Source: Candidatus Schekmanbacteria bacterium RIFCSPLOWO2_02_FULL_38_14 (GTDB lineage Bacteria; Schekmanbacteria; GWA2-38-11). Taken from it: 64,000 nt of DNA. The translations under genes and the position numbers were made by a program. The notes under the pieces are model-generated. The model made no database searches. It was not told the DNA's origin and saw only the letters and a program-made list of their open reading frames with translations. Positions 3,022 to 63,579 of this stretch are shown here, piece by piece (position 1 is the first letter of the stretch; every line of letters starts with the position of its first letter). Location of the stretch: positions 14,207-78,206 of the forward strand of contig MGDH01000018.1 of the NCBI GenBank assembly GCA_001790855.1, in the 5' to 3' direction.

Positions 3022-3127
3022 AATTCTGGCAGAACAGGCGCCTGCCTGCCGGCAGGCAGGTCTCGCCTGTCTGATAGGCAGGGTTTTCTAACCCTGCCAA
3101 ACTAATTTTCAGAAAAAAGGCAAAAGA

Positions 3128-4486: not shown

Positions 4487-4510
4487 ATCTGATTTCTCTT
4501 ATAATTTTTT

Positions 4511-4585
4511 TCAAATTCCCCCCTTACCCCCCTTTTCCCTGCCTGCCGGTAGGCAAGTAAAAAAAAGGGGGATGGGGGGATTAAT
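4511..4585. repeat. composite palindromic element: family B (C6/G6 hairpin) with a family C core (CCTGCCTGCCGGTAGGCAAG) nested in the loop
   Basis: aaattccccccttaccccccttttccctgcctgccggtaggcaagtaaaaaaaagggggatggggggatt; the 108-aa ORF 4437-4763 is produced by this repeat and is not a gene. Confidence 0.6.
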
Positions 4586-4669
4586 TCCAATATTCCTTTG
4601 TATGGCCCTAAAACTTATGAAACTTACAATAATCCTAATCTCTGTAATCATATTAAACATACACAACAA

Positions 4670-7480: not shown

Positions 7481-7572
7481 GTCATTGCGAGAAGCGTTAA
7501 CGACGTGGCAATCTCAAAAATGTCATTGTTATTAAAGAAATTGCCACCTGCCTGCGGTAGGCAGGCAATGAC
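7481..7572. repeat. palindromic element family D (GTCATTGCGAG ... CAGGCAATGAC termini) with a family C core inside
   Basis: gtcattgcgagaagcg...gtggcaatctcaaa...ccacctgcctgcggtaggcaggcaatgac. Related copies at 26227-26275, 29775-29891, 48509-48659 and 56028-56046 (partial). Confidence 0.55.
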
Positions 7573-11416: not shown

Positions 11417-12427
11417 CTAAATGATGTTGTCACTCTTTTTTCGATTACACTTCTCACACAGAAGTTCTATGTTTCTTGCAGTGTTACTTCCACCTTTTGA
11501 AACAGGTACCATATGGTCAAATTCTAACCTCTCTCGGCTTCCACATTTTACGCATGATCCATCATCACGTTTCCAGACGAATCTCTTTACTTCATCAGGA
11601 ATTCTTTGTCTATCAGGCTTTATACATTTCTCCTGAATAGGAATAGTATCATAGACCCTATCAATTAATTGTTCAGGTCTCCTCTTTATTAATTGTTCAA
11701 GTCTTCTCTTTCCATCTTTTTTTATAGAGAGTCCATGACTTGGCAGGATTGTATCAAAACTATAGTTCAACAACTTTGGTAGATTATCCCATGCCTTTTT
11801 GTAGGAAAAGCAAGACCATTCTGCTGAAAGGTTTAATTCCTCAGGTGCCATTTTAGGATTTAAAAGATTCTTCCCTAAAACTGTATCACCTGTAATAAGT
11901 ACCTTGTTTCGATAGAGCAAGCATATATTTCCTTTTGTATGCCCTTCAATGTGAATTATTCTTAAATCTTCATTAAAGAATTCATCATCTTTTAAACTGA
12001 TATCCACTTTACAGGGCGCAACATCAAAATGTTTTTGAAGCTCTTCAGGAACAAATTGAGGATTTGAAACCTTTTCTCTGCCTTCAATGAATGGTATGTC
12101 AGCGCTGTGTGCAGCAACAGGAACATTTAATTCTTCTTTAAGTTGGGCAAGGTTTCCTGTGTGGTCCCCATGGCAGTGAGTGCATATGATGACATCAACT
12201 TTGAACTTGTTTTTTTTCAAAAAGTTAAGGATTGTATGGTGAGAGCCCTTTTTAAAAAATTCAAATCCTCCTTCGCCAAAATTATATCCGTTTTTTGAAA
12301 GAAAATTCAAGACATCATTGTGCAATGGCTTTAGCCCGGTATCTACCAGTATCTTTTCAGACCCGTCTATATAAAATGCTTTTGTATTTGCCAGCTCAAT
12401 TTCATGGACACCATGAAAACTGTTCAT
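11417..12427 (-). CDS. fusion protein: N-terminal MBL-fold metallo-hydrolase plus C-terminal HNH endonuclease domain
   Basis: HCHGDHTGN (HxHxDH metal motif) near residue 85; C-terminal CVKCGSRERLEFDHMVPVSKGGSNTARNIELLCEKCN (HNH Cys4 and catalytic His). Confidence 0.7.
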   Translation of the reverse strand: MNSFHGVHEIELANTKAFYIDGSEKILVDTGLKPLHNDVLNFLSKNGYNFGEGGFEFFKKGSHHTILNFLKKNKFKVDVIICTHCHGDHTGNLAQLKEELNVPVAAHSADIPFIEGREKVSNPQFVPEELQKHFDVAPCKVDISLKDDEFFNEDLRIIHIEGHTKGNICLLYRNKVLITGDTVLGKNLLNPKMAPEELNLSAEWSCFSYKKAWDNLPKLLNYSFDTILPSHGLSIKKDGKRRLEQLIKRRPEQLIDRVYDTIPIQEKCIKPDRQRIPDEVKRFVWKRDDGSCVKCGSRERLEFDHMVPVSKGGSNTARNIELLCEKCNRKKSDNII

Positions 12428-14157: not shown

Positions 14158-14206
14158 TCAAATCCCCCCTCGCCCCCCTTTAGCAAAGGGGGGTTGGGGG
14201 GATTTG
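14158..14206. repeat. palindromic element family B (AATCCCCCC-TCG-CCCCCC-TTTAGCAAA-GGGGGG-TTG-GGGGGATT)
   Basis: Perfect hairpin with palindromic loop; identical in sequence (reverse orientation) to the copy embedded in ppx at 15989-16033. Confidence 0.65.
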
Positions 14207-15530: not shown

Positions 15531-15668
15531 AATAAGTTCAAATTTCAAAATCCAAAATTCAAAATCAAATAAGAGCTTCAAGTGATTATTTTTTCACTTA
15601 AACCTTTGAATCCCTGACACTCTGAACCCTTTTTTATTTGAACTTTGAGCTTTGGCATTTGACATTTT
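15531..15668. repeat. AT-rich palindromic element family A copy
   Basis: aataagttcaaatttcaaaatccaaaattcaaaatc ... ctttgaatccctgacactctgaaccc ... tttgaactttgagctttggcatttgacatttt. Confidence 0.6.
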
Positions 15669-16611
15669 ATATCATCTCCATCATTACACCATAGCGCAGC
15701 CCTCTTGTGCTCACATGTAGCTCATAGAATTTCAGATAGTTTATTATCTCTTCAAGAATAATAGCTCCAGCAATAATAACATCTGCTCTATCAGGTTCAA
15801 GACCTATTATCTTTTTCCTCTCATCCATGTCCTTTTTCTTCAAAACAGAAATAATTCTTTTTAAATTTTCACTTTTCAATTTCCAATTTTCAATTTTCAA
15901 CCTGTCATATCCTGGGATTTTCAGGTCTATCTGCGCAAGGGTGGTGACTGTTCCTGCAACTCCGATTAGAAGATTATCCTTGTTAGGCAAATCCCCCCAA
16001 CCCCCCTTTGCTAAAGGGGGGCGAGGGGGGATTTGCTTGAGATTATTTTTTATTGCTTCCCTTATATTTCTAACCTCATTTTCTTCTACAGGGTCTGATT
16101 TCAAGAACTTTTCTGTCAGTCTCACTGAGCCGATTTCAAGGCTTTTAGAATATTGAATTTTATCATCTGCTCCAAAAATTATTTCAGTGCTTCCTCCTCC
16201 AATATCTATGATTGTTGTATTAATACCTTTATCTTCTATTCCTGAAACTGCTCCAAGAAAAGAAAGCTCAGCTTCTTTTTTCCCTGATATTACTTCAACT
16301 ATTATATCTGTTTCATTTTTTACAAGATTTAAGAAGGCTGATGAGTTTTCTGCCATTCTTAAAGCGCTTGTTCCCACTACCTTGATATTTTCTGCTCCTG
16401 ATTTTTTGCACTTATCAATATAGTCCTTCAGAACGCTGAGGGTTTTTGTCATCGCTTCGTTTTTTATCAGTTTTGTATCATAAACCCCTTTGCCGATTCT
16501 TGTAACTTTTAAATCTTCGTGGATGGGTTCAATGTGTTTATTTTTATCAATTCTTCCTATTAATAATAAAACTGAGTTTGTTCCTATATCTATTGCACCA
16601 TAAGTTTTCAT
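15667..16611 (-). CDS. ppx: Ppx/GppA-family exopolyphosphatase / guanosine pentaphosphate phosphohydrolase
   Basis: MKTYGAIDIGTNSVLLLIG N-terminus and IGGGSTEII actin-like ATPase motifs; carries an in-frame family-B repeat insertion. Confidence 0.8.
   Translation of the reverse strand: MKTYGAIDIGTNSVLLLIGRIDKNKHIEPIHEDLKVTRIGKGVYDTKLIKNEAMTKTLSVLKDYIDKCKKSGAENIKVVGTSALRMAENSSAFLNLVKNETDIIVEVISGKKEAELSFLGAVSGIEDKGINTTIIDIGGGSTEIIFGADDKIQYSKSLEIGSVRLTEKFLKSDPVEENEVRNIREAIKNNLKQIPPRPPLAKGGWGDLPNKDNLLIGVAGTVTTLAQIDLKIPGYDRLKIENWKLKSENLKRIISVLKKKDMDERKKIIGLEPDRADVIIAGAIILEEIINYLKFYELHVSTRGLRYGVMMEMI
15989..16033. repeat. family-B palindromic element embedded in-frame inside ppx (encodes IPPRPPLAKGGWGDLP)
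   Basis: Reverse-complement translation checked by hand: atc ccc cct cgc ccc cct tta gca aag ggg ggt tgg ggg gat ttg cct gives IPPRPPLAKGGWGDLP inside the Ppx ORF. Confidence 0.7.
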
Positions 16612-16848
16612 AAGGTTACTTCAAAAATTAGTTTAATTATTTTTATTCTTGACTCTTGACTATCTTTTAGCTTGCATATATCAAATATGTTTTAAAAGAT
16701 TAAAGCAAAAAAGGATTTGTAGAAACAGACCTTAAGGTCTGTTGTCAACAGGTCTAAAGACCTGTTTCTACATTTTAAAAAACTTACTACTTACAGCTCA
16801 ATGCTTATAGCTTACAGCCATTAAAAGTCTTAAATCAAGGAGAAGTTT

Positions 16849-23232: not shown

Positions 23233-24474
23233 TTATTCTTCCTCCAATTCCGCTTTGAGAAGTTCTGATTTTAGATAAAAAGCTCCATCAGTGACCACAC
23301 TATCTCCGGCTTTAAGCCCTTTTAGAACTTGATAAAAACCATTTATTTCTTCTCCTACTTCTATTTCTCTTTTTTCAAAGGTATTGTTGCTCTTTGCAAT
23401 AAAGATAATTTTCTTTCCATCCTCCATCTGAATTGCTTTTTCAGACACAACCAACAACTCTGGGGACGATTTAGTTATAATCTGTACATCAGCAAACATT
23501 TCGGGTTTCAGAATCCCCCCATTCCCCCCTTTAAAATCCCCCTCAGCCCCCCTTTTCCAAAGGGGGGTGTGGGGGGATTCAGGGGGATTATCAATCTCAA
23601 TCCTTACTTTTGCCATACGGGTTGAAGCATCTACAATATCACTAATATAAGTGACTTTTCCTTTAAACTCTTCTTTAGGATAAGTTGAGACTTTAATATT
23701 TGCTTCCAACCCCTTTTCAACTGATGATATATCCTTCTCAGGAACATCAGCTATAACCCATAATCTTGATAAATCTATAATAGTAAAAAGCTGACTTGAA
23801 GACTCAATTACTTCTCCTAAAGTCAAGTTCCTTTCAACCACTGTTCCAGAAAACGGAGATCTTATTGACATTTGAGGATTGATTATGTGGGTTGAGGTCA
23901 ATCTTTCTATATCTTTATCACTTATTCCAAAAAGGTATAATTTCTCTTTAGAGGCTTGAAACTCTGCTTTGACATTTAAATACTCTGCCTCTCTCCGTTG
24001 AAACTCACCAAGTCCGATTGCTTTACCGTCAAAAAGCCTTTTTGCACGCTCATACCCCTTTTCAGCTACCCTCAAATTCGCTTCAAGTTTTAGAAAATTT
24101 GACTCTGCTTCTCCAAGTTCAGGACTGTCTATTGTGGCAAGGGCTTCACCTTTTTTAACCTCGTCACCAAGATTTACTTTTATCTCAATAACCCTTCCAG
24201 GTATTCTGCTTCCTATACGGGCAACTCTGTTTTCATCAGGCATTATTTTGCCAGGAAAATTATGAGAAAGGCTTAGTTTTTTTAATGTTACCTCTTCAAC
24301 TTTTATCCCTGCTATTTTTATAGAGGAAGGATCAAAATGAACTATATTTAGATTGGTATCTTGCTTGGTTACATTTTCTTTGTTCTCTTTTTTTGGAGAA
24401 CATGCGTTGAAAGTAAAAACACCAATTTGTAAAATTAAAATCATTAAAAGTAAATTAATCAGATTTTTTTTCAT
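23233..24474 (-). CDS. czcB: RND efflux membrane fusion protein (CzcB/HlyD family), with in-frame repeat insertion
   Basis: Lipoprotein-like N-terminus, coiled-coil hairpin, beta-barrel motif ...IEIDNP[insert]LKPEMFADVQI; family-B repeat at 23506-23583 encodes NPPESPHTPLWKRGAEGDFKGGNGGI in-frame. Confidence 0.8.
   Translation of the reverse strand: MKKNLINLLLMILILQIGVFTFNACSPKKENKENVTKQDTNLNIVHFDPSSIKIAGIKVEEVTLKKLSLSHNFPGKIMPDENRVARIGSRIPGRVIEIKVNLGDEVKKGEALATIDSPELGEAESNFLKLEANLRVAEKGYERAKRLFDGKAIGLGEFQRREAEYLNVKAEFQASKEKLYLFGISDKDIERLTSTHIINPQMSIRSPFSGTVVERNLTLGEVIESSSQLFTIIDLSRLWVIADVPEKDISSVEKGLEANIKVSTYPKEEFKGKVTYISDIVDASTRMAKVRIEIDNPPESPHTPLWKRGAEGDFKGGNGGILKPEMFADVQIITKSSPELLVVSEKAIQMEDGKKIIFIAKSNNTFEKREIEVGEEINGFYQVLKGLKAGDSVVTDGAFYLKSELLKAELEEE
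23506..23583. repeat. tandem family-B palindromic element embedded in-frame in czcB
   Basis: aatccccccattcccccctttaaaatccccctcagccccccttttccaaaggggggtgtggggggattc; hand translation of the reverse strand matches the ORF-track protein. Confidence 0.7.
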
Positions 24475-25712: not shown

Positions 25713-26316
25713 ACCTATTCCTTTCGCTACGAAAAATTAAAAGAAATTATTTGAAATTAAAAAATAGAATAGAAATTTAGAATTTTGGAGGTCTGTAAAG
25801 TAGATTGATTGAAATTGAAGGGATGAAGATGCAGTAGTAAATCGTAATTAATGAAATAAACAAATACAAGACAATTCCATTAGATAAAGGGATAAAACTT
25901 AAATTCAAACAGAAAGAACAGATATGGGAGTTAATATCAATTCCATATGGGCTTCCACATTCATCGCACAGAAAAAAGTCCACACAATATGCAAATAGAT
26001 ATAGAACTAGAAAAATTATTATCACTAAAAAATAAATCTTTTTCATATTGCTTTTTATAAATTATTAATTTTCTTTTTTGTCAAGACAAAAAATTGTGAG
26101 TGTAGTAAAATATTGCTTATGAAAGTCAATTCCTATATACTTCATTTGTACATCTCCTTTATTGTTTTTAATCAAGCAGTAGTTTATTCCATCTACTACT
26201 TCGAGGATCACAACTTTTTTATGTTATCATTGCGAGCTATGAGCTTGCCGCGTTGCTACTTTTCCCGCAACGACTAAGAGTAGTTTTTTCAGAGACTAAT
26301 ATATAAGGCATTAACA

Positions 26317-29774: not shown

Positions 29775-29891
29775 TGTCATTGCGAGCGAAGCGAAGCAAT
29801 CCAGACGAGATTACCACGAGCCGATAAATCGGCTCTAGTGAAATGACCCTTTGGGTCAGATTGCTTCAGGGCTAAAGCCCTTCGCAATGAC
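29775..29891. repeat. palindromic element family D (GTCATTGCGAGCGAAGCGAAGCAATCC ... GGCTAAAGCCCTTCGCAATGAC)
   Basis: 117-nt element with inverted termini and internal sub-hairpins (gagccgataaatcggctc; gaccctttgggtc). Confidence 0.55.
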
Positions 29892-39501: not shown

Positions 39502-40731
39502 ATGTTTCAAATGGGATTTTTGAAATTAGTCTTTAGAAAATGGCGAATGAACTACAAGGTGTTCTTTTTAATATTAATCATATTTTCTTTTCTGCCATTA
39601 AATATTCATTCTGAGAAGAATACTAATCTTTTCCCTGAAAACCCTCTGGAAGGCTCGAAGATATTTGTGATTAAAGGTTGTGTAAAGTGTCATGCCATTA
39701 AGGGAGAGGGAGGAAATATAGGGGCAGATCTAGGCAAAGTCACCTTTAAAGATACATTGCTTGATATGGCAGGAATTATGTGGAACCATTTTCCGTTTAT
39801 GAGTGAAAAAATGGAGGAGGAGAAGATTGACTGGCCAAAGTTTTTAAGTGGGGAAATGGCAAGTCTAATAGGCTACCTTTATTATATAAATTATTTTGAT
39901 GAGCCAGGCAATACTAAAAAGGGAGAAAATTTATTTTCAGTAAAAGGGTGCGCGCAATGCCATGGCATAGAAAAAAAAGGTGGCAAACCAGGACCAAGTT
40001 TAAGTAAGTTTAAACGTGACTACTCACCAATCTTCATGGCACAAGCTATGTGGAATCATGGTTCTGAAATGGAGGCATCCATGAAGAAATTAGGGATTAA
40101 GAGACCTCAGTTTAATGATAAAGAGATGGCTGACCTATCTGCTTATATTAGAAAAGAAGCAAGAGGGGAAAAGAAGGGATATGGTTTTATGTTGCCTGGA
40201 AATCCAAAAGAGGGGAAACAACTTTTTAACAAAAAAGGATGCATACACTGTCATGCCATTTCAAATGAAGGTGGAAACATAGGGCCAGACCTTGGCAAAA
40301 AGGCAGAAGAGCTGCACAGGAGTCTAAATGAAGTAGCAGGCATTATGTGGAATCACTGGCCTAATATGTATAGAAAAATGATAGAGATGAGAATAGAGGT
40401 TCCAAGTTTTTCAGATAAAGAGATGGCAGACATAATAGCATATCTCTATTTTCTTGGATACTTTGATGAAAAAGGAGATATGAAAAAGGGGTCTATAATT
40501 TTCAATGAGAAGGGGTGTATTAAATGTCATTTTTTTGATGGAAAACAAATGATAGGGCCTGATTTGAGAAAATTATCTAATACTACTTCTTCCATAGAAG
40601 TTGTTACAGAGATGTGGAACCATGCCTCAAAGATGAAAAATAAAATGGCAGAGCTTAAAATCCAATGGCCCAAATTCAAAAAAGGCGAGGTAGCAGACCT
40701 TATGCAATATCTCAGGTCTTTAAAAAAATAA
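39502..40731 (+). CDS. tetra-domain c-type cytochrome (four class-I monoheme repeats, each with CxxCH...GG...MWNH)
   Basis: CVKCH, CAQCH, CIHCH, CIKCH each followed by GEGG/KGG and an MWNH motif ~25 residues later; N-terminal membrane anchor or signal. Confidence 0.75.
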   Translation: MFQMGFLKLVFRKWRMNYKVFFLILIIFSFLPLNIHSEKNTNLFPENPLEGSKIFVIKGCVKCHAIKGEGGNIGADLGKVTFKDTLLDMAGIMWNHFPFMSEKMEEEKIDWPKFLSGEMASLIGYLYYINYFDEPGNTKKGENLFSVKGCAQCHGIEKKGGKPGPSLSKFKRDYSPIFMAQAMWNHGSEMEASMKKLGIKRPQFNDKEMADLSAYIRKEARGEKKGYGFMLPGNPKEGKQLFNKKGCIHCHAISNEGGNIGPDLGKKAEELHRSLNEVAGIMWNHWPNMYRKMIEMRIEVPSFSDKEMADIIAYLYFLGYFDEKGDMKKGSIIFNEKGCIKCHFFDGKQMIGPDLRKLSNTTSSIEVVTEMWNHASKMKNKMAELKIQWPKFKKGEVADLMQYLRSLKK

Positions 40732-40854
40732 CAGGCTGCTTAATGTCATTTCTGCCTGCCTGTCGGCACCTGTCTGCCGCCTGACTGCCGTCAGGCAGGT
40801 CAGGCTGGGACAGGTAAGAGCAGGAATCCAAAAGCAAAGGAGGTTAATAATCTT

Positions 40855-41120: not shown

Positions 41121-42347
41121 ATGAAGAATCTAAAGAAAATTACCATCTATATGTTTTCAGTTTTTTTGATAGTAGGGTCATTATTAACCGTAGGAATAAA
41201 TGTTGTTTGCAGCACAGAAAAATACCTTTTGCCTGGAGATGCTAAAAAAGGGTGGCAGAGTTTTTTCACCAAAGGGTGCATCAAATGCCATTCTGTTTGG
41301 GGAGAGGGAGGTACAGCCGGTCCTAATCTTGGCATTACACCCTCTAAGCATTTGACTGAAGCAGAGCTTACAGCAGCCATGTGGAACCATGCTCCGGCAA
41401 TGTGGGAGAAAATGTTAGCAAAAGGGATAGATTTTAAAGCCATAAGCCAGGAAGAAATGGCTGATATATTCGCATTTCTCTACTTTATTAGATATATGGA
41501 TGAGCCAGGTAATAAGGAAAATGGAAAAGAGTTGCTGGCCACAAAAAAATGCACTAATTGCCATGCAATTCATGGAAAAGGAGGCAGAGTAGGGCCCGAG
41601 CTGACAAAATGGGGAACATATACTAATCCAATTCTGTGGGCGCAGATGATGTGGAATCATGCACCCCAGATGGAAGAGGAAATGAGGAACAGAGGAATAA
41701 CCTGGCCAATATTTGGTGAAAACGAGATGGTTGATATTATTGTTTATGTAAAGAGTGTCAGTAAATCGGGAGATAAAATTTTTATTTCACCAGGTGACTC
41801 AAAAGACGGTAAAATACTGTTTTCTAAAAAGGGTTGCAGCCATTGCCATTCTACCGAGACAGGTAGCAAAAAGGATGGACCAAATCTTGGAAGGGATTTA
41901 AGAAAAAAAGAATCTTTCCCAAGGACTATTACTCAGGTTGCAGGCCTTATGTGGAACCATTCTCCTGAAATGTGGAAAGAGATGAAAGAAAAGGGAATGA
42001 AGAGGCCAGAGCTCAATCCTCAAGAGATGGCAGATTTAATCGCATATCTTTTTTCTCTCCAATATTTTGATGAGCAAGGAAACAGAGAAAAAGGAGAAAA
42101 GGTATTTAAAGAAAAATATTGCATAAAGTGTCATACAGTGAATGGCAAAGGCGGTCTGAAAGGTCCTGACCTTAAGGAATGGCGCAGGCAGGTTTCGCCA
42201 ATTTCCATGGCGCAAGCTATGTGGAACCATGGTCCTTCAATGTTGGGAGAAATGAAAAAAATGGGCTTTAAATGGCCAAAGTTTGAAGGAAATGAGATAG
42301 TGGATTTGATGGAATATTTAAGAGAACTGGCTAATAAAACACTTTAA
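41121..42347 (+). CDS. tetra-domain c-type cytochrome, paralog of 39502-40731
   Basis: CIKCH, CTNCH, CSHCH, CIKCH with the same four-repeat layout and MWNH motifs; 408 vs 409 aa. Confidence 0.75.
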   Translation: MKNLKKITIYMFSVFLIVGSLLTVGINVVCSTEKYLLPGDAKKGWQSFFTKGCIKCHSVWGEGGTAGPNLGITPSKHLTEAELTAAMWNHAPAMWEKMLAKGIDFKAISQEEMADIFAFLYFIRYMDEPGNKENGKELLATKKCTNCHAIHGKGGRVGPELTKWGTYTNPILWAQMMWNHAPQMEEEMRNRGITWPIFGENEMVDIIVYVKSVSKSGDKIFISPGDSKDGKILFSKKGCSHCHSTETGSKKDGPNLGRDLRKKESFPRTITQVAGLMWNHSPEMWKEMKEKGMKRPELNPQEMADLIAYLFSLQYFDEQGNREKGEKVFKEKYCIKCHTVNGKGGLKGPDLKEWRRQVSPISMAQAMWNHGPSMLGEMKKMGFKWPKFEGNEIVDLMEYLRELANKTL

Positions 42348-46203: not shown

Positions 46204-46210
46204 GCAGAAG

Positions 46211-46345
46211 GGTTCGAGGATTCGAGGGTTCAAATGAAAATCAAAGTTTAAAAATAAAAAATTAAAATTTTGGTATTTGAATTTTGATATTTGATTTTTA
46301 TTTCACTTGAACCCTTGACACCTAGACCCCTTGAACCCTTTTTTG
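46211..46345. repeat. palindromic element, family A variant with GC-rich arms (gggttcgagg...cttgaaccc)
   Basis: gggttcgaggattcgagggttcaaatg...ttcacttgaacccttgacacctagaccccttgaaccc; arms match those of 15531-15668. Confidence 0.55.
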
Positions 46346-46829: not shown

Positions 46830-46987
46830 AACATTTCTCCTCATCCTTTATCCTTCTCCCCATAGGGGAGAAGGCAGGTTGAGGGGGAGAAGAAAAACAT
46901 TCAACCCCAGAAGGGGTTTCCCACAGGAAATTGTGGGAGAGAATAAGAGGGACGACAGAGACGTCGTTCCCTACATGATAGGATAAT

Positions 46988-48472
46988 ATGGGGAATATAT
47001 TAAGCAAGTGGACTGAAAGAATTACACAAAACAGAATCTGGAAATCAATTTTCAGACATGGCTATCCTGATACAGAGCTTAATCAATCCCTTGTCATGTA
47101 TACCAATCTTTTTCTTCATATTCAACCTGTAAAGGTTCATAAAAATGTTTTAAGACCATCATATACCTTAAGCCTTGGTTTGATCTCTTTTATACTATTT
47201 CTTGTCCTTGTAATAACAGGGATATATTTAATGTTCTATTATGTCCCTTCAGTTGACAGGGCTTACAATGATATGAAGGAGCTTCAATTTGTTGTCTCCT
47301 TTGGCATATTTTTGAGAAACCTGCACCGATGGTCAGCTCATGGAATGGTGGCTGCAGTATTTTTACATATGTGCAGGGTTTTCTATACGGCTTCTTATAA
47401 ACCTCCAAGAGAATTTAACTGGGTCTTAGGAGTTATACTTTTAATAGTGACATTTGGTTTAAGTTTTACAGGCTATCTTCTTCCCTGGGACCAGCTTGCT
47501 TTCTGGGCAATTACAGTGGGTACAAGCATTGCCAGCTATGCACCAATTATTGGGCAGAAACTACGCTATTTTCTGTTAGGTGGGAATATTGTTGGGCAGA
47601 ATGCTCTTTTGCGGTTTTACGTTCTCCACTGCGTTGTTCTGCCATCAGTTGCTGCTGTCTTAATAGGAATACATTTCTGGCGGATAAGAAAGGATGGAGG
47701 GTTATCAAAGCCTGCAGAAAAATTAAAACAAGAAGAAAAGTTTGAAGAGCTGCAGGAAGAAGGGCTTTCCCCAAAAGGAACAAGTAAGACTTATGGTTTA
47801 ATGGAACTTGTAAAAGGTGCTACTATTCCTGTAGAACAGGAGCCCGAGAATGAGATAATGTCATGGCCACATTTGATCTTTAGAGAGTTCCTTGTCGCCA
47901 TAGTTGTTTTAGTAGTGCTTATTGCTATTTCCTTATTTTTTAATGCACCTCTTGAGGAGCTTGCAAATCCTTCAGAGCCTCCGAATCCAGCAAAGGCTCC
48001 ATGGTATTTCTTAGGACTTCAGGAGCTTGTATCTTATTCAGCCTTTATAGGAGGTGTAATTACACCTTTTCTTGTTGTTTTTGCGCTCCTGATGGCAATA
48101 CCTTATATAGATTACAGAGCAGAAGATGTGGGGATATGGTTTTCCTCTAAGAAGGGTCGTTTAATAGCATTAATTACAGCAACCCTGACATTAATAAGTA
48201 TTCCTGTCTTGATTTTTCTTAATATGAAATACGGGATTAGAGTTTTCTACCCTGATGCTCCTTCAATTCTTGTGGATTTGATAAATCCTGGAACAATTCT
48301 GATTGGAGTTACAGCAGTTATCTCAATTATTATAGGGGTCCGCACTAAGTCATGGAGGTTAGCTGCCATGATGATATTTACCTCCTTTGTAACTGGTTTT
48401 ATTGTGTTGACTGTTATTGGAACATTATTCAGGGGTCCTAACTGGGAGTTTGTTTTCCCATGGAAAGGATAA
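46988..48472 (+). CDS. cytochrome b (fused b6 + subunit-IV-like, 494 aa) of bc-type complex
   Basis: Conserved cytochrome b N-terminus ([12 protein letters not shown] ... [10 protein letters not shown]) and C-terminal PEWY-region equivalent ([10 protein letters not shown]); additional C-terminal TM helices. Confidence 0.85.
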
Positions 48473-48508
48473 AAAAATATATAGGAGTCTGTCAGAGAAC
48501 CCTTTTTT

Positions 48509-48659
48509 GTCATTGCGAGCGACTCCCTCGATATTGCTCGGGACAGGCTCCGGGAGCGTGGCAATCTCAAATCCCCCTATATCCCCCTTTTCCCTGCCTG
48601 CCGGTAGGCAAGTAAAGGGGGAGAAAAGAGGGATTGCTTTGGATTCGCCTCGCAATGAC
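48509..48659. repeat. nested palindromic element ~150 nt: family D termini, then GCAATCTC/GAGGGATTGC, then family B C-runs, then family C core
   Basis: gtcattgcgagcgactccc...gtggcaatctcaaatccccctatatcccccttttccctgcctgccggtaggcaagtaaagggggagaaaagagggattgctttggattcgcctcgcaatgac. Confidence 0.6.
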
Positions 48660-48713
48660 AAGAAAACTCATATTATTTAGAATTTCGAATTTAGGATTTT
48701 AGATTTTAAATAC

Positions 48714-49808
48714 ATGGTTAAATATTTTACATTTTTTAGTATTATTCTCCTGGTCTTTTTTTCTCTTGCCATCTTTAAGGATTATGATAGAGAGTGGAAG
48801 GATTTCCAGAAGAGGTTCTACGAGATTGAATCAGAGAGAGGAAAAAACGCTGAAGAGAAAAAAGTGATAAGAAATACTCCTTTGAGAATAAAACAGATAG
48901 TGTTAGAGGATTTGAATAGAGTTGATAGGTGCACAACCTGCCATCTCGGAATGGAATATGAGAAAAAGTCTTACAAAAAGAATCCATATAAGTCTCATCC
49001 CGACCCAACAATGCATCCCTTTGATCAATTTCCCTTTGATAGATTTGGATGCACCATCTGCCATGAAGGGCAGGGAAGAGCTACTACAAAGGATGATGCC
49101 CATGGTGATGTGGATTTCTGGGATAAGACCATGCTAAGGGGTATTTATCTGCAAGCCTCATGTCTAAAATGTCATGATGACCCTGACCTTAAGGGTGCTG
49201 AGATTGCAATGAAAGGGAAAAAACTTTTTGAGGAAAATGACTGCTATGAGTGTCATAAAGTAGGAGATAAAGGAGAAAGTGTAGGACCTGAGCTTACAAA
49301 GGAAGGATTAAAGACAAAACACCATTTTGATTTTACCCGTGTAAAGGGCAAGCACACTATTGCTAACTGGCAATTCGAGCATCTAAAAAATCCGGAAGCA
49401 GTTGTTCCTGATTCAGTGATGCCAAATTTGGAACTCAGTGATGAAGATGCAAGAGCCTTGACTATATATCTCTTAAGCCTTACTGATGAAAAGGTGCCAG
49501 AAGAATACATAGCGTCTCTAAAAAGAGGTCCTATCCTTGCATTAAGTAGAAAAGTTACAAAGCCTGAGATGAGTCCAGGTGAAAAGCTTTATATAGAGAT
49601 GAACTGCTATTACTGCCATAAGATAAAAGGGGAAGGAGGTGATGGAGCACCTGATTTAACTGGAGTTGGCGCAAGGCATGATGAAGATTGGCTTATAAAA
49701 CATTTTGACACTCCGCGGTCAATAAGTCCTCATTCTTTTATGCCTGACTATAAACTTACACCCGAGGAGATAAAGGCTCTGACAGATTTTATGTTGACTT
49801 TGAAATAG
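48714..49808 (+). CDS. pentaheme c-type cytochrome associated with the Rieske/cyt b genes (C-terminal class-I monoheme domain)
   Basis: N-terminal TM anchor; CTTCH, CTICH, CLKCH, CYECH, CYYCH; C-terminal CYYCHKIKGEGGDGAPDL...FMPDY typical class-I cytochrome c. Confidence 0.75.
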   Translation: MVKYFTFFSIILLVFFSLAIFKDYDREWKDFQKRFYEIESERGKNAEEKKVIRNTPLRIKQIVLEDLNRVDRCTTCHLGMEYEKKSYKKNPYKSHPDPTMHPFDQFPFDRFGCTICHEGQGRATTKDDAHGDVDFWDKTMLRGIYLQASCLKCHDDPDLKGAEIAMKGKKLFEENDCYECHKVGDKGESVGPELTKEGLKTKHHFDFTRVKGKHTIANWQFEHLKNPEAVVPDSVMPNLELSDEDARALTIYLLSLTDEKVPEEYIASLKRGPILALSRKVTKPEMSPGEKLYIEMNCYYCHKIKGEGGDGAPDLTGVGARHDEDWLIKHFDTPRSISPHSFMPDYKLTPEEIKALTDFMLTLK

Positions 49809-49840
49809 CTATGAGACAAAGGTTTTCATAAAACAATCAA

Positions 49841-50000
49841 GCCCAGAAGGGCTTTTCCACAGTTTTATGTGGGAGAGCCTTTTTAGGCTCGATAGCGAAG
49901 AAAAAAATAAGGAGGTGATGAGACAAGCTACATAGTAAGGGAAAGAGTTTAGATTTAAATTCTGTTAGCTACCGGATATATTTAAGAAAAAGGAGGAACT
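49841..50000 (+). promoter_or_regulatory. conserved leader/promoter module (copy 1): GCCC-AGAA-GGGC hairpin, CCACAG-TTTTAT-GTGGGAG hairpin, GAGCC-TTTTT-AGGCTC hairpin, A-rich tract, TTTAGATTTAAATTCTGTTAGCTACCGGATATATTTAAG, AGGAGG RBS
   Basis: Near-identical ~140-nt block recurs at 53010-53149 upstream of the next gene; hairpins and a TTGAAT/TTTAAA-17nt-ATATAT promoter-like spacing seen in sequence. Confidence 0.45.
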
Positions 50001-52856: not shown

Positions 52857-53009
52857 AAATATTTCTAATTAGCCATATGAGATATTATAGGAGGAAGAGA
52901 TAAAGGTTCTGATTAAATAGAGGTTGACTTTGAAATAGGTATAGGCTAAAAGTTTTTGCAAAATAATCGGCCCCACAGAAGGGGCCTCCCCTGCCTGCGG
53001 TAGGCAGGC

Positions 53010-53149
53010 ACAGTTTTATGTGGGAGCGCCTTTCAAGGCTCGATATAGAAAAGAAAAAAATGGAAAGGGGTGATGCAATAGAATAGATAAAAACTGGAGA
53101 AGGTTAGATTTGAATTCTGTTAGCTACCGAATATATTTAAGGAGGATAT
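53010..53149 (+). promoter_or_regulatory. conserved leader/promoter module (copy 2), paralogous to 49841-50000
   Basis: cacagttttatgtgggagcgcctttcaaggctcgata...ttagatttgaattctgttagctaccgaatatatttaaggagg atg; a family-C palindrome is inserted just upstream (52988-53011). Confidence 0.45.
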
Positions 53150-54679: not shown

Positions 54680-54876
54680 GAACAATCAACTGTGAGAGAG
54701 CCTTTCCCTGCCTACTGCAGGCAGGCTCGATAAATATTTTCTGGATTAAAGCCGTCAGGGAAAAATTCTCTGACGGCTTTAATATTTGCAATGAAAAATA
54801 AATCTGATATATAAAGTAAAATTTTTAAATCTTGTAGGAAAGACTTTTAGACTCGATGAATATTTTTTGATTAAAC

Positions 54877-55917: not shown

Positions 55918-56046
55918 ACCGAGAATCTCAAATCCCCCTCTATTCCCCTTTTCCCTGCCTGCCGGCAGGCAAGTAATGGGGGAGAAAAGAGAGATTGCTT
56001 TGTCGCCTGCCTGCGGTAGGCAGGCTTTGCTCCTCGCAATGACATT
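55918..56046. repeat. composite palindromic element (family B C-runs + two family C cores + family D right terminus)
   Basis: gaatctcaaatccccctctattccccttttccctgcctgccggcaggcaagtaatgggggagaaaagagagattgctttgtcgcctgcctgcggtaggcaggctttgctcctcgcaatgac; ORF 55885-56127 is produced by it. Confidence 0.6.
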
Positions 56047-56059
56047 GTCGGGGAGATTG

Positions 56060-58267
56060 TTATTCTGGTTTTTCTGTCCAGAAGCAGATTGAATAAGTAT
56101 GCTTTGTGCTTTGTGATGTGACGTCAACTTTGATTTTCTTTTTTTCTGACTGTTGAAGTGAAAAATCTATTGCTATGATTTTTTCTGAATGGGGCAACAC
56201 TTTAACTGAACCTTGTCTGATGCCCAATTCTTCAGGATAAATATTGTAAATATAGTTTTCTTCAATATCAGCATGGTTTTTTATAGAAAAAGAAAATCTG
56301 TTTTTTTCATTTTTAATAATTATTGGAAGGAGAGTGGTTGTTTTATTATTGAAAGTCTCCGCAGGAGAAAGAAAAGAAGAAATATTCTGCCTTGCAGCTT
56401 GAAGCGGTTTTGGAACTGGATTGCTTTTATCAGTTTCAACAAACACTGTATCTTGTAAATCTGTTTTCAGGTATTTCTTGGCTCCTGATATCCGGAAATA
56501 GACTTCTGTTTTGTTAAATGCAAATGATTTGCCTGTCAAAGAGTCCAGAGAAATCTGTTTAAGTCTTAGCGGAAACGGCGAACTCTCTTCGTATGGATAA
56601 AAGAATATAACAATATTGCCATTATCATAAATTCTACTGATTGATTCTGATGATTCAAGTCTTGAATGAAACTCCGGGTCTTTCCCGGTAAACCTGCGGC
56701 TCATCTCCCTGTAAGTGTAATATATCCTGTCATCAGTTTCATGTGAAGGAACAACAAAAAACCTTATAAAATATTTTCTCGCAGTCTCCTCAACATCTCC
56801 CCTTATCATTCTGATTCCATCTGAGAGTTCAAGGTCTCTGAAGTTGTATGCCTCAAATCCCATTAAATTTGCAAATGGGGCGTTTTCATAGACAAGCAGG
56901 GAATCAGGGCTTTCAGGAATAAATTTTATTGCCTGAATATAACTGTTTATCCATCCGGTTAAATCTTTGGTCCTCCAATAGGTGTACCTGATGCTGTAGA
57001 ATATAATCATTAAAATCAGAATTGAGGTTCCTGTATATGAAAATAGATTACTCTGAAATAACGATTTTGAGTTCAATGCCTTTGTTATGAGCAAAGAAGG
57101 GAGTGCCATTAGCAGGTATGATATGGAAACATAAAAGGTCATTTTCAGGATTCCGTCTAAGTTCTCAAGAGGAGTGTTAAAAGGACCTGTGAATTTTAAG
57201 AATAGATAAAATATACTTCCAAGAACAAGAGTTAATATTAAAAAGGGGCTATGATGTTGAGAAGAACTATTGAAAACAGAGTCAATGGCAACAGCCATAA
57301 TAATACACATCATCGGAACTGCAGGCATGAGGATTCTCGGGAAATGATGCCCCGGATTTATTATCGCAAGAATTATGTAGGAAAGAGAAAAAACAAGAAC
57401 CAGCAGGTTTGGGATATAAATTTTTTTATTACTGAATGATATGTAAATAAAAAAAACAAATGACGGGAGAAAAATGAAATAGATTAATGAATAGTAATCA
57501 CAGATATTTGACCACAAACCACGGTAGAAATACTCCATTGATTGAAGCCATGCAGGCATTCCAAAGTCTCTGAAAAAATATATGCCGAGTTTATTTATGC
57601 GGTAGGCAAAGAAGGGAAGAAGGAATAAAACTGAAGAAATTAAAAAAACAGAAAGGTTTTTGCTCAGGAAATCTGTTTTCTCTTTCTTTTTAAGCTTAAT
57701 AATTAAATCTATAAGGAGCCAGACAAAAATTCCAATAACGATTGCCATTGAAAATGTCCTGAAGAAGAAGGCAAGGGACGCAGTAATTCCTGCAAGAACA
57801 GCAAAAGAAAATTTCTCTTTCTCTATGCTTATCAGCAGGAGAAGGGCTGAGGAGATTATTAAAAGAGATGTATATGTGTATCCCTTGCACAGATATGAGA
57901 AGATTACATGGAGAGGGAAGATAGCCAGGAAAGTGGAAGACAGAAATGCTACCCGCGGATTATAAGCTTTTATGCAAAAAATGTAGGTTATAATGATTGT
58001 GATAAGCGCAACAAGGGATTCAAGAATTTTACCAACGACTAAATGCTCACCTGTGAAGCGGTAGATAAAACCCAAAATTATTCCTGCAAGACTCGAGTCT
58101 ATGCTGATCTTTCCTGTATAGGCGAATTGCCGTGCATTTAAAAGAATTACTGCCCCGTCAGTTTCTATCAGGGGTGTGCTTAAGGAATAAAAAAACCTTA
58201 TAATTCCTCCAAGGAGGAGAGGGATAACAAGAGGAAAATAAATATAAGATTTATTTGAAGTCATCAA
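56060..58267 (-). CDS. GT-C superfamily membrane glycosyltransferase (ArnT/PMT-like, GT39/GT83-type) with C-terminal soluble domain
   Basis: 735 aa, ~12 N-terminal TM helices with first periplasmic loop acidic motif region (ETDGAV), large C-terminal extracytoplasmic domain. Confidence 0.5.
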   Translation of the reverse strand: MMTSNKSYIYFPLVIPLLLGGIIRFFYSLSTPLIETDGAVILLNARQFAYTGKISIDSSLAGIILGFIYRFTGEHLVVGKILESLVALITIIITYIFCIKAYNPRVAFLSSTFLAIFPLHVIFSYLCKGYTYTSLLIISSALLLLISIEKEKFSFAVLAGITASLAFFFRTFSMAIVIGIFVWLLIDLIIKLKKKEKTDFLSKNLSVFLISSVLFLLPFFAYRINKLGIYFFRDFGMPAWLQSMEYFYRGLWSNICDYYSLIYFIFLPSFVFFIYISFSNKKIYIPNLLVLVFSLSYIILAIINPGHHFPRILMPAVPMMCIIMAVAIDSVFNSSSQHHSPFLILTLVLGSIFYLFLKFTGPFNTPLENLDGILKMTFYVSISYLLMALPSLLITKALNSKSLFQSNLFSYTGTSILILMIIFYSIRYTYWRTKDLTGWINSYIQAIKFIPESPDSLLVYENAPFANLMGFEAYNFRDLELSDGIRMIRGDVEETARKYFIRFFVVPSHETDDRIYYTYREMSRRFTGKDPEFHSRLESSESISRIYDNGNIVIFFYPYEESSPFPLRLKQISLDSLTGKSFAFNKTEVYFRISGAKKYLKTDLQDTVFVETDKSNPVPKPLQAARQNISSFLSPAETFNNKTTTLLPIIIKNEKNRFSFSIKNHADIEENYIYNIYPEELGIRQGSVKVLPHSEKIIAIDFSLQQSEKKKIKVDVTSQSTKHTYSICFWTEKPE

Positions 58268-61993: not shown

Positions 61994-62307
61994 AATTTTT
62001 CTCTCTCCTATTATAATTAAGATATAAACTTAGTTTCAGATATATTCCTTTCAAAGGGTTTGATTACAGTCATAATTTAATTTAGTATAATCCTAAAAAA
62101 AAGTGTAAGTCAATAATTAATTAAAGGGGACTAAGGGGACGGTTCTCTTTTTCAGTTGATATGGCTATGATATGATGATAATTAGAAACTCATAAAAAAA
62201 AGAGAACCGTCCCCTTTAGTCCTAAGTTTACAATTAATATGGTCCTCTTCATGAAATATTCTTTAATTAGGTAGGAAAACGGTCCTCTTATTTAAACCAC
62301 ATAATTA

Positions 62308-62565
62308 TTAAGAGACTTGGCTTTCTTTTATTTTTTCCATGTAGGAATAAAGAAAATCAGGACAAAAATCTGCACCTGTATCCCAAACTATTGTTCCAAG
62401 TTGTTTGTCTATACGAAAATTTTTAAATTTTTTTAAACTATTTAAAGGTTCGAAAACTTCTCCATAGAGAAATTTTTTGAAATCAATCCTTTTTTTCTTA
62501 CCATTTTCAAATTCTATTTCTATGATGTATTCTTTTATATAAAGTGCATTTTTTACTTCATGCAT
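62308..62565 (-). CDS. DUF2442-family small protein
   Basis: 85 aa; sequence pattern typical of DUF2442, encoded directly downstream of a DUF4160 gene as in the known paired arrangement. Confidence 0.6.
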   Translation of the reverse strand: MHEVKNALYIKEYIIEIEFENGKKKRIDFKKFLYGEVFEPLNSLKKFKNFRIDKQLGTIVWDTGADFCPDFLYSYMEKIKESQVS

Positions 62566-62577
62566 TTTACTCCTCCC

Positions 62578-62838
62578 TTATTCTAAAGGTTCTATACGGA
62601 ATAAAGGTTTGTGTTCCTGAGCAAGTTTCCATTCTTTCCTTAACTCATTTCGATGTAGAAATGCCCACTCAAGGACAAGAGAGATTACCCTTCTTGACAA
62701 TTTCCCTTCTAATATCTGCAAATCTTCAATAGAAAATTTTGCTTTATATTTTCCATATATTGCATGGAAATGTGGTGGATGATGATCATCATAAAACATT
62801 GCAATAATTATCCCAAAGAACTCACTTATTTTAGGCAT
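62578..62838 (-). CDS. DUF4160-family small protein
   Basis: 86 aa, MPKISEFFGIIIAMFYDDHHPPHFHAIYG is the hallmark N-terminus of DUF4160. Confidence 0.6.
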   Translation of the reverse strand: MPKISEFFGIIIAMFYDDHHPPHFHAIYGKYKAKFSIEDLQILEGKLSRRVISLVLEWAFLHRNELRKEWKLAQEHKPLFRIEPLE

Positions 62839-63579
62839 TGTGAATTAGTTTTGTATAAATTGCAGAGAATCTTTTCAAAACGGAATTTTATAAAAATTTT
62901 TATTTGAAATATATTTTACTTAAAAACTTTATAATGTAAAGGAAAAGATGACTTACTATTCATTCCTTTAATTCAAAGCCAAGATTGAATCCTGTTGTAG
63001 AATCATCAAAAGGAATTGCTGAGGGGTTTTTTACTTATGCACATGGTATTATCTTGCCGGTACATTTCCGACAAATTTCCGATAAAATATACGCCCCCCC
63101 ACGGTTGGAAGTATCAGCCACAATCAGCCAACCGTCATCTGTCCATTTCTTGCTTAACCCCGAAGGGGTGACATAAACCCTATTTCTTTCTCAGTGTTCT
63201 CTGTCTGCCTGCCGGCAGGCAGGTGTCTCTGTGGTGAAAAATTATTTGGTTCTAAGCAAGACCTTATTATGATTCCTGGGAACTTTTTATTTGAGGTAGT
63301 TGCTGAAAGAAGCATGGTGAATTGAAGTGAAAAGTAACTTTTGAGAAGAAGCAAAAAGAGACGGGATTAGTGAGGGAGGACGACCCTTCCTTTATTCTCT
63401 TCTTGATTTCGCTTGTCGCGGTATAAAAACCTCTAATCTTAACTCGTCATCAATTGTAAAGTGTTCTTATTCAACAACGTCCCTCTTCTTTCCAACTTTC
63501 AATCTAATCGGTTTTGTCTTCGCTATATAATAAGTGCGCGTCGTGCTTTTGCGTGTTAGGCGAAGTGCCGTTGATGTAA

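Follow-up and report, generated by a model that had tools for sequence, protein, structure and literature searches.

A three-layered palindrome between cytochrome genes of a Schekmanbacteria genome, read as a probable mosaic of small mobile repeats

Short palindromic repeats of the repetitive extragenic palindrome (REP) type were divided into GTAG-tagged and CGTC-tagged superfamilies by Di Nocera, De Gregorio & Rocco (2013, BMC Genomics 14:522; PMC3733652). The CGTC superfamily has four families and includes dRS3 of Neisseria and the Rickettsia palindromic elements (RPEs) RPE-4 and RPE-6; its members consist of an unpaired CGTC, TGTC or CCTC tag, an 8-9-bp stem starting with A-T, a 4-5-nt loop and a 3-nt CCA tail (PMC3733652). 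They were reported from five phyla, mostly as inverted dimers, some of them intragenic and occasionally nested in other palindromes, and the survey found no linked or dedicated transposase (PMC3733652). In R. conorii, RPEs lie in frame in protein genes, where the extra loop peptides are tolerated by the fold (PMC3733652). REP doublets forming hairpins (REPINs) are described as vertically inherited and lineage-specific. Here we analyse a nested hairpin that lies between a cytochrome b and a multihaem cytochrome c gene in a 64-kb contig stretch (the window, GC ~37%) of Candidatus Schekmanbacteria bacterium RIFCSPLOWO2_02_FULL_38_14 / _12_FULL_38_15, an uncultivated groundwater bacterium, together with four families of palindromic repeats, A to D, in the same window. 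With a probability of roughly 0.7, we read this focal element as a mosaic, resembling the bacterial interspersed mosaic elements (BIMEs), of small non-autonomous mobile palindromes of the REP/REPIN/RPE kind.

The focal spacer is 241 nt long and separates the cytochrome b gene (46988-48472) from the cytochrome c gene (48714-49808), both being part of a gene cluster on one strand that also includes molybdopterin oxidoreductase, NrfD and Rieske genes as well as several for cytochromes c. It holds three layers: a CGTC/TGTC-tagged inverted dimer of family D outside, a 41-46-nt B unit in the loop of the dimer and a 19-20-nt C unit in the loop of B. The nesting of D outside B outside C, which the original prediction had placed at 48509-48659, is thus borne out by the coordinates of the termini, the B hairpin and the C palindrome. 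The parts of the spacer are as follows, with the strand where one is assigned.

48503-48665, whole focal hairpin: the D-bounded composite with a T6/A-rich extension of the outer stem; arms 48503-48519 and 48649-48665, 17 nt, 94% complementary
48509-48568, plus strand, left D unit: TGTC tag, GTCATTGCGAG, 41-nt GC-rich insert, GCAAT, CTC tail
48632-48659, minus strand, right D unit, inverted: GATTGC-TTTGGATTCGC-CTCGCAATGAC
48569-48635, B hairpin occupying the middle loop of the D dimer: AAATCCCCC-TATAT-CCCCCTTTT ... AAAGGGGGAGAAAAGAGGGATT; 23-nt arms, 74% complementary
48594-48612, C1-type palindrome CTGCCTGCCGGTAGGCAAG in the B loop
48673-48712, separate AT-rich hairpin TATTTAGAATTTCGAATTTAGGATTTTAGATTTTAAATA abutting the cytochrome c start codon; not family A by sequence

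The whole hairpin begins 31 nt past the cytochrome b stop codon and finishes 49 nt ahead of the cytochrome c start (48714), the corresponding distances for the 151-nt D-bounded core (48509-48659) being 36 and 54 nt. The outer termini are GTCATTGCGAG (48509-48519) and its exact reverse complement CTCGCAATGAC (48649-48659). In the left D unit the 41-nt insert, which makes small hairpins of its own, is followed by GCAATCTC (to 48568), and left and right units together make an inverted dimer with the tags outermost. The outer G-run of the focal B hairpin is degenerate; C is nested in B also at 4539 and 55955. Composites of this type had been called perfect hairpins of ~150 nt, a description that does not hold: perfect pairing is limited to the 11-bp D termini plus the T6/A-rich extension, and the predicted fold is multibranch and imperfect. 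Folded as RNA, the 163-nt stretch reaches a minimum free energy of -76.9 kcal/mol with a z-score of -6.8 (-6.76), and folded as DNA -41.5 kcal/mol with a z-score of -6.8 (-6.79). A T-run follows the hairpin on neither strand (its 3' flank reads AAGAAAACTC on the plus strand and, on the minus strand, AAAAAAGGG); ahead of it stands a T6 run, and it is missing from the terminator-scan sites. Rfam covariance models gave no match in the window at gathering score, and at the focal site yielded sub-threshold microRNA-like hairpin noise only. Readings of D and B as a K-turn or G-quadruplex, tried from the sequence alone, were dropped for lack of fit or test. As a side observation, the right D terminus (ATGACA) coincides with the -35 hexamer of sigma-70-like promoter matches at 48655-48683 and 56039-56066, a consensus match only.

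Five other contigs encoding the same cytochrome b protein, drawn from NCBI, ENA and Logan as independent assemblies, are 99.87-100% identical to the window with 0 gaps. Since independent assemblies agree without a gap, the focal sequence is real and not an artefact of assembly. Two Logan contigs terminate at 48590, the centre of the palindrome, as expected of a dispersed repeat.

Copies of the four families in the window were compared with a chance level taken as the mean of dinucleotide shuffles.

D terminus: 7 matches, shuffle mean 0.43
B arm: 19 matches, shuffle mean 0.24
C2: 8 matches, shuffle mean 0
A arm: 3 matches, shuffle mean 0

All four families are far above chance, and a repeat finder recovers them independently. 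Family C, taken beforehand as one palindrome with variants, resolves into two subtypes, the 20-nt CCTGCCTGCCGGCAGGCAGG (C1) and the 19-nt CCTGCCTGCGGTAGGCAGG (C2). A density of more than 25 copies in 64 kb had been proposed and agrees with the ~26 found when nested units are counted separately. The accompanying statement that nearly every spacer of more than 60 nt carries a copy was too generous: A-D elements occupy 17 of the 34 spacers of at least 60 nt, with some strong hairpin in ~25 of the 34 (a count from the fold list). They are present in all three convergent and all five divergent spacers, and so do not stand only at 3' ends. The copies outside the focal spacer are these.

55924-56043, sister composite: B(C) at 55929-55996, followed by an additional C2 (56006-56024) and, at 56033-56043, by the right D terminus CTCGCAATGAC; left D terminus missing or degenerate
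7481-7572, D dimer with a C2 palindrome (7547-7565) within its right half
29776-29891, canonical D dimer in a divergent spacer: GTCATTGCGAGCGAAGCGAAGCAATCCAG ... TTCGCAATGAC
26226-26290, degenerate D-like element: ATCATTGCGAG ... GCAACGAC
14160-14205, simple B hairpin in a divergent spacer
4516-4586, B hairpin in a convergent spacer, its loop holding a C1
26920-26965, simple B hairpin between two same-strand genes
15989-16034, minus strand, B hairpin in frame in a Ppx/GppA phosphatase gene (15667-16611, minus), encoding IPPRPPLAKGGWGDL
23506-23580, minus strand, composite of one complete B and an additional arm, in frame in an HlyD-type membrane-fusion (adaptor) gene (23233-24474, minus)
52990-53008, C2 palindrome CCTGCCTGCGGTAGGCAGG
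3036-3100, perfect C1 palindrome CCTGCCTGCCGGCAGGCAGG with two further GC-rich hairpins
40752-40803, 54707-54725 and 63205-63227, other C copies
414-570, family A, a long AT-rich hairpin with 7-nt periodic arms (TTTGAGC TTTGAGC TTTGGCA TTTGACA)
1927-2045 and 15531-15666, other family A copies; 46204-46345, A-like

The sister composite is 94% identical to the focal element over 79 nt (55924-56002 against 48563-48641). The three-level nesting had been claimed here too, at 55918-56046, and stands for B(C) and the right D terminus, while the left terminus that would close the outer layer is lacking or degenerate. Complete inverted D dimers occur at 3 of the 5 window D loci, and the left unit of the dimer at 29776-29891 is identical to the commonest unit in other phyla. 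The simple B hairpin at 14160-14205 and the intragenic copy 1.8 kb away at 15989-16034 are exact reverse complements of each other (inverted repeat of 68 nt, 87%). Two entries in the earlier copy lists call for correction: two of the seven B copies given as intergenic (15989 and 23506) lie in frame inside genes, and two of the family A copies (28135 and 48670), which are short, AT-rich hairpins, lack the arms that mark the family. Beside the family A element at 1927-2045, and ending right where it starts, stands an orphan N-terminal fragment of ~48 codons (1780-1925), similar to UDP-glucose/ManNAc dehydrogenases (KLGVIGLGYVGLPLCLEMANAGFDVTGIDVDKEKVKKINKGISYILDA); its position suggests a deletion or rearrangement at the repeat.

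The two intragenic B copies add peptides to otherwise recognisable proteins. In the Ppx protein the insert comprises 15 residues in a surface loop and is missing from the solved Aquifex Ppx (2j4r/1t6c), from the homologues P0003 (62% identity) and P0004 (60%) and from more distant ones; the closer relatives P0002 (68%) and P0005 (65%) have other C-rich/G-rich hairpins in the same loop. In the HlyD-type adaptor 21 residues are placed between positions corresponding to ZneB residues 267 and 268, which are adjacent in ZneB. The same 70-nt composite recurs in differing sequence contexts in two metagenome contigs of other organisms, L386 and L315, neither of which otherwise resembles the window, and the frame that bears it in L315 is a GAF-GGDEF protein. 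Its presence in unrelated contexts indicates that composites are copied as units.

Families B and C were also sought elsewhere. A relaxed B pattern gave at least 130 hits in metagenome contigs (loci L293-L412). Among the hits listed, B is exactly 41 nt long in 104 of 130, follows the consensus aaaTCCCCC(C)-N3-5-(C)CCCCCTTT-N4-AAAGGGGG(G)-N3-5-GGGGGAttt and resides in contigs of 36-69% GC, a span which, as far as base composition can tell, implies very different organisms. In about 8% of these hits a further hairpin or B copy occupies the loop or lies next to the element. Among the copies listed, 85 have at least 300 nt of sequence to either side; 23 of these are situated in frames open for at least 60 codons each way, and the in-frame copies encode (I/N/S)PPxPP(L/F)xKGGxGG. 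When ten of these frames were checked against Pfam, seven had domains flanking the insert on both sides or spanning it (MetH-like, two TatD, UvrD-like helicase-nuclease, RecG, GatB and P-type ATPase), two had domains on one side and one had none. We also observed that the 3-nt spacers in the B arms of these loci are often non-complementary and that a few 'alleles' (TCG/CGA, CAA/TTG) recur in mixed combinations, as if copies had exchanged arms. In viral contigs the strict B pattern (six-base runs, 4-nt loop) had no match and the relaxed pattern five, and the perfect 20-nt C1 occurred in 35 viral-contig stretches at up to 4 copies each, where by a rough estimate well under one was expected by chance.

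Family D was scanned in one genome per species with the pattern GTCATTGCGAG-N5-35-GCAATC, which returned at least 120 loci; the figures that follow refer to the matches listed. The 120 loci contain 175 units, with complete inverted pairs at 50 loci, a clustering far beyond chance, which would yield ~0.003 additional matches in 0.86 Mb. The hosts belong to Pseudomonadota, Bacteroidota, Chloroflexota, Nitrospirota, Planctomycetota, Cyanobacteriota, Bacillota, Patescibacteria, Zixibacteria and others, and include Bradyrhizobium, Novosphingobium, Solimonas, Pedobacter, Hymenobacter, Flavobacterium, Nostoc, Microcoleus and Oscillospiraceae. The focal left unit is built in the same way as the 175 units. 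In the other genomes 33 of 40 pairs of neighbouring units are inverted with the tags outside. A typical dimer, 74-99 nt long, has one stem on the outside and a second, GAAGCAATCC, on the inside, and each unit contributes a small hairpin that varies. The stem within a unit is ATTGC/GCAAT only, 5 bp, and begins ATT...AAT. GTC is preceded by C in 51% of the units and by T in 42%; the base in front of the window termini is T (48508, and on the reverse strand 48660, 7573 and 56044), C (29892, reverse strand) or G (7480). The tail is CCA in 34% and CTC in 35% of units from other genomes, with CTC in the focal unit and CCA in the copy at 29776, and between GCGAG and GCAATC lie 7-34 nt in those genomes, against 41 nt in the left unit of the focal element. 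Seventeen D-bearing loci compared with Rfam gave nothing except a tRNA.

D is carried by mobile replicons as well. In a viral collection it is present in phage contigs; one IMG/VR contig (L204) represents a genuine head module of a phage and carries eight D units within 6.6 kb, among them a dimer (4709-4779) in frame within the portal open reading frame (ORF; 3846-5330, minus). D was also found on plasmids of Novosphingobium, Methylosinus and Methylocystis. As an observation in its own right, short tandem D arrays with periods of ~37-54 nt replace inverted dimers at L015 1372-1506, L145 11383-11520 and L200 2670-2856, and tandem neighbours are the commonest arrangement at viral loci (21 of 43 among those listed). 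In a Patescibacteria metagenome-assembled genome (L084), an insertion sequence of the IS256/Mutator family (555-1845; ORF 665-1591, minus; terminal repeats GGTRATTAGTACCCTAATGGTTGA) is placed exactly between two D dimers, in the order ...CTCGCAATG, insertion sequence, CATTGCGAG.... Its transposase was considered as an autonomous partner of D and rejected on account of its family and its own, unrelated terminal repeats. Having its own ends and sitting between D dimers, this insertion sequence shows D as a target of insertion and not as its ends.

The position of the focal element was followed through six versions of the cytochrome b-cytochrome c spacer in related Schekmanbacteria, whose cytochrome c genes share 86-88% nucleotide identity.

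Window and L253 (cytochrome b 98% identical): D(B(C))
L252: simple B within AT-rich arms
L251: family A element
L413: unrelated palindrome
L414 and L415: 49 nt, hairpin-free

The focal element is not conserved at this position among orthologous operons. Two upstream spacers measure 6 and 4 nt in L252, as against 152 and 158 nt, filled with hairpins, in the window, and sister Schekmanbacteria contigs carry A, B, C and D at other positions. A paralogous comparison is possible within the window, where leaders of ~240 nt before genes 50001 (a large cytochrome) and 53150 (EB_dh-domain) are 81% identical (49750-50000 and 52880-53149). They differ by a single 18-nt gap, which is the C2 palindrome 52990-53008, the empty site lying near 49857; in the leader alignment the filled and empty C2 sites show no edge duplication of 2 nt or more. 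Taken together, the turnover of the spacer and the paralogous leaders show that whole units are gained and lost with no sign of target duplication. Both leaders, we further observed, share hairpins and a conserved box TTAGATTT(A/G)AATTCTGTTAGCTACCG(G/A)ATATATTTAAG, and the pair may represent a shared regulatory leader.

We interpret these data as a population of mobile palindromes from which the focal mosaic was assembled. The units would multiply as DNA, probably via single-stranded hairpin intermediates handled by an enzyme supplied in trans, and insertion would leave no target-site duplication. Persistence would be expected where the damage is slight, whether in a spacer, within the apical loop of a hairpin that is already there or, in frame, at a place that codes for a protein surface loop; insertion into apical loops would give rise to the concentric nesting, and composites, once formed, would be copied as units. 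The sharing of B and D by many phyla, phages and plasmids points to horizontal spread. We infer the single-stranded DNA, HUH-type route and the preference for loops from the lack of target duplication, the unit size of 19-46 nt, the hairpin form and the residence in loops. If transcribed with the cytochrome operon, the focal element would fold into a very stable RNA hairpin and could, like the REPs of E. coli, slow 3'-5' decay of the upstream Rieske/cytochrome b segment, an RNA-stabilising effect that is plausible as a secondary by-product. An insulator role may likewise be plausible.

Several points weigh against mobility. No agent for the mobilising step was found: the ORFs of the 64-kb window include no transposase or REP-associated tyrosine transposase (RAYT), and no mobilising transposase is known for CGTC-type REPs (PMC3733652). 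Contigs of the same species, aligned over up to 21 kb, have a gap at no element, so that no recent movement is visible; insertion polymorphism was sought in relatives of 86-98% identity. The filled/empty comparisons are between species at 86-89% identity, where deletion is not formally separable from insertion at any one site. The taxonomic breadth of B is read from the GC range of metagenome contigs, and the strong conservation of B and D across phyla could also reflect a conserved function or binding protein.

The idea of mobile palindromes can be carried further. B, C and the D variant might be minimal pan-bacterial mobile DNAs not yet described as such, carried between phyla by phages and plasmids, translatable in two of three frames and free of target duplication. 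Their preferred targets would be the apical loops of hairpins and stretches that code for surface loops of proteins, and they would be moved by a widely conserved enzyme, possibly a housekeeping or phage-borne single-stranded DNA enzyme rather than a transposase of their own. We regard this extension as doubtful. If true, it would provide a general answer to how CGTC-type REPs move and would explain thousands of odd Pro/Gly-rich 'PPxPPLxKGGxGG' loops in annotated proteins.

The rival that fares best, although we consider it unlikely, holds that the hairpins are primarily functional structures of the operon (terminators, attenuators, insulators or 3'-exonuclease barriers) kept by selection, their repetition reflecting a shared design. 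The predicted fold is indeed very stable, the element stands soon after a stop codon within a multi-gene cytochrome cluster, and some stable hairpin is found in 4 of 5 other orthologous contigs (3 of 4 other distinct spacer versions); moreover, REPs of E. coli and of the CGTC and GTAG types are for the most part located downstream of ORFs and are able to make mRNA more stable (PMC3733652; PMC5082802). However, the occupant of the spacer differs by lineage and is absent in L414 and L415, L252 keeps the same operon with upstream spacers of 4-6 nt, and elements stand in all five divergent window spacers. The terminator role suggested at the outset receives no support for the focal element: its hairpin has no T-run on either strand, and the in-frame intragenic B copies, where termination would do harm, argue against efficient termination.

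A further proposal, of classical MITEs (miniature inverted-repeat transposable elements), would make the elements deletion derivatives of a DDE insertion sequence, with the GTCATTGCGAG termini as terminal inverted repeats moved by cut-and-paste. Elements bounded by D do have perfect 11-bp terminal inverted repeats, a length of 92-151 nt and variable internal cargo. Against this, the check for target-site duplications came out negative, with no direct repeats flanking any window D copy and none at the paralogous C2 filled/empty site; B and C units of 19-46 nt are too small; and the only transposase seen beside D, that of L084, has its own ends, in a search for others that was not exhaustive. 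The published survey found none linked to CGTC repeats (PMC3733652), and REP/REPIN/BIME and RPE sequences are better analogues. The 'MITE-like proliferation' envisaged in the original prediction accordingly divides: proliferation is upheld by near-identical copies, site turnover, precise insertion, in-frame copies and wide distribution, whereas MITEs in the strict sense, for want of a duplication, a related transposase and units of adequate size, appear very improbable.

Just as improbable is a repeated local origin without mobility, in which replication slippage or template switching on low-complexity tracts formed each hairpin and likeness arose by convergence or gene conversion. The periodic arms, with C6-N3-C6, (CCTG)2 and the 7-8-nt periods of family A, would favour slippage and the 'perfecting' of hairpins. 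Yet B shares non-repetitive features (flanking CAAAT/ATTTG, the TTT-N4-AAA loop, the 41-nt length in 104 of 130 listed hits), the D 11-mer plus GCAATC is common across phyla, the same 70-nt composite is found in unrelated genes, and an 18-nt unit is whole in one paralogue only. Finally, an assembly or binning artefact, such as chimeric joins across low-complexity sequence, might account for the two Logan contigs that stop precisely at 48590 but can practically be discounted, because other independent NCBI and ENA contigs span the site gap-free at 99.87-99.99% identity and the Ppx and HlyD frames remain open across their inserts.

REP-like mosaics are already known as a kind, and D falls inside a published superfamily. 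New are the phylum of the host, a nesting of three levels, families B and C, which are unnamed, their breadth over phyla and phages and the high in-frame fraction of B. For annotation the consequences are practical, in that these hairpins break assemblies (as in the contigs that end at 48590), give rise to false small ORFs and lengthen genuine proteins by Pro/Gly-rich loops in many uncultivated bacteria; once they are recognised, annotation would become cleaner. A lineage with at least four co-resident families, nesting, filled and empty sites, compact relatives and phage-borne copies also provides material for work on mechanism. The identity of B and D across phyla contrasts with the view of REP-type repeats as lineage-specific and vertically inherited. 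For the respiratory operon the message is a negative one, namely that the hairpin is not a conserved regulatory part.

Other features of the window lie outside families A-D. A very long near-perfect hairpin, AAAGGGGACTAAGGGGACGGTTCTCTTTTT ... AAAAAGAGAACCGTCCCCTTTAGTCC (62095-62215), is located in a spacer adjoining a DUF4160/DUF2442 gene pair (62308-62838). Two similar cytochrome c genes of ~408 residues (39502-40731 and 41121-42347) contain internal repeats 270-300 nt apart, which are duplicated haem-binding modules unrelated to the palindromes, and 11417-12427 encodes a metallo-beta-lactamase-fold protein with a C-terminal HNH endonuclease domain. A search of the window for tRNA and tmRNA found none.

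Set beside known systems, the elements resemble Rho-independent terminators in their GC-rich stem and in the AAA and TTT that flank simple B copies, and differ from them in that no T-run lies downstream of the focal element, B offers just some three T residues, and copies stand in genes and divergent spacers. They share with bacterial MITEs such as Correia/NEMIS a non-autonomous nature, terminal inverted repeats, hairpin transcripts, abundance in spacers and occasional in-frame copies; unlike those, they have neither a target-site duplication nor a parental insertion sequence, and their units are far smaller. The parallel with RPEs, drawn by description only, is that B is in frame in Ppx, the HlyD-type adaptor, RecG, a UvrD-like helicase, GatB, TatD and a P-type ATPase and, for Ppx, is missing from homologues. 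B differs in its 41-46-nt length (RPE-1 is longer), in its GC-rich C/G runs and in its occurrence in contigs of widely differing GC rather than in one genus.

There is a likeness in organisation to E. coli REP/BIME sequences and to REPINs, the latter mobilised by RAYT transposases, which also consist of short palindromic units, inverted pairs in larger hairpins and mixed unit types in spacers, lack target duplication, are targeted by insertion sequences (as D is in L084) and may have mRNA-stabilising side effects. In contrast to the REPIN/RAYT system, A-D have no GTAG tag and the window has no RAYT gene; in contrast to REPINs, B and D are common to several phyla and phages, and the nesting here reaches three levels. 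GTAG-tagged units of the REP type were nevertheless observed in the same DNA, as an inverted dimer at 16718-16772 (TGTAGAAACAGACCTTAAGGTCTGTTG / CAACAGGTCTAAAGACCTGTTTCTACA) and a single unit at 46950-46976 (GGGACGACAGAGACGTCGTTCCCTACA), with similar units (TGTAGGGATAGGTCTTTAGACCTATCC) in the sister contig L251; this coexistence of GTAG- and CGTC-type repeats hints that a RAYT gene may lie elsewhere in the genome. Br-REP1 and Br-REP2 of Bradyrhizobium (PMC5082802) have sequences different from the families described here.

No Rfam family matched, a literature search with the literal D, B and C sequences gave only unrelated primers or nothing, and the strings GTCATTGCGAG and ATTGCGAG do not occur in the text and supplements of PMC3733652; the tag and dimers of D do match the CGTC superfamily, and its tail, CCA or CTC, does so in part. 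D differs from that superfamily in its stem, which is a perfect 5 bp, and in a variable, often self-pairing insert of 7-41 nt that takes the place of the 8-9-bp stem and 4-5-nt loop. The (C/T)GTC tag, the AT(T) start of the stem, the mainly inverted dimers, the mostly intergenic location with some intragenic copies and the occasional nesting are common to both; a short tail is too, though it is CCA in only some D units, and within the 64-kb window D likewise has no linked transposase. On this resemblance D is filed as a variant within the CGTC-tagged superfamily, not assigned to any of its four families, and the D scan adds Chloroflexota, Nitrospirota, Planctomycetota, Cyanobacteriota, Bacillota, Patescibacteria, Zixibacteria and phages to the five phyla of the published survey.

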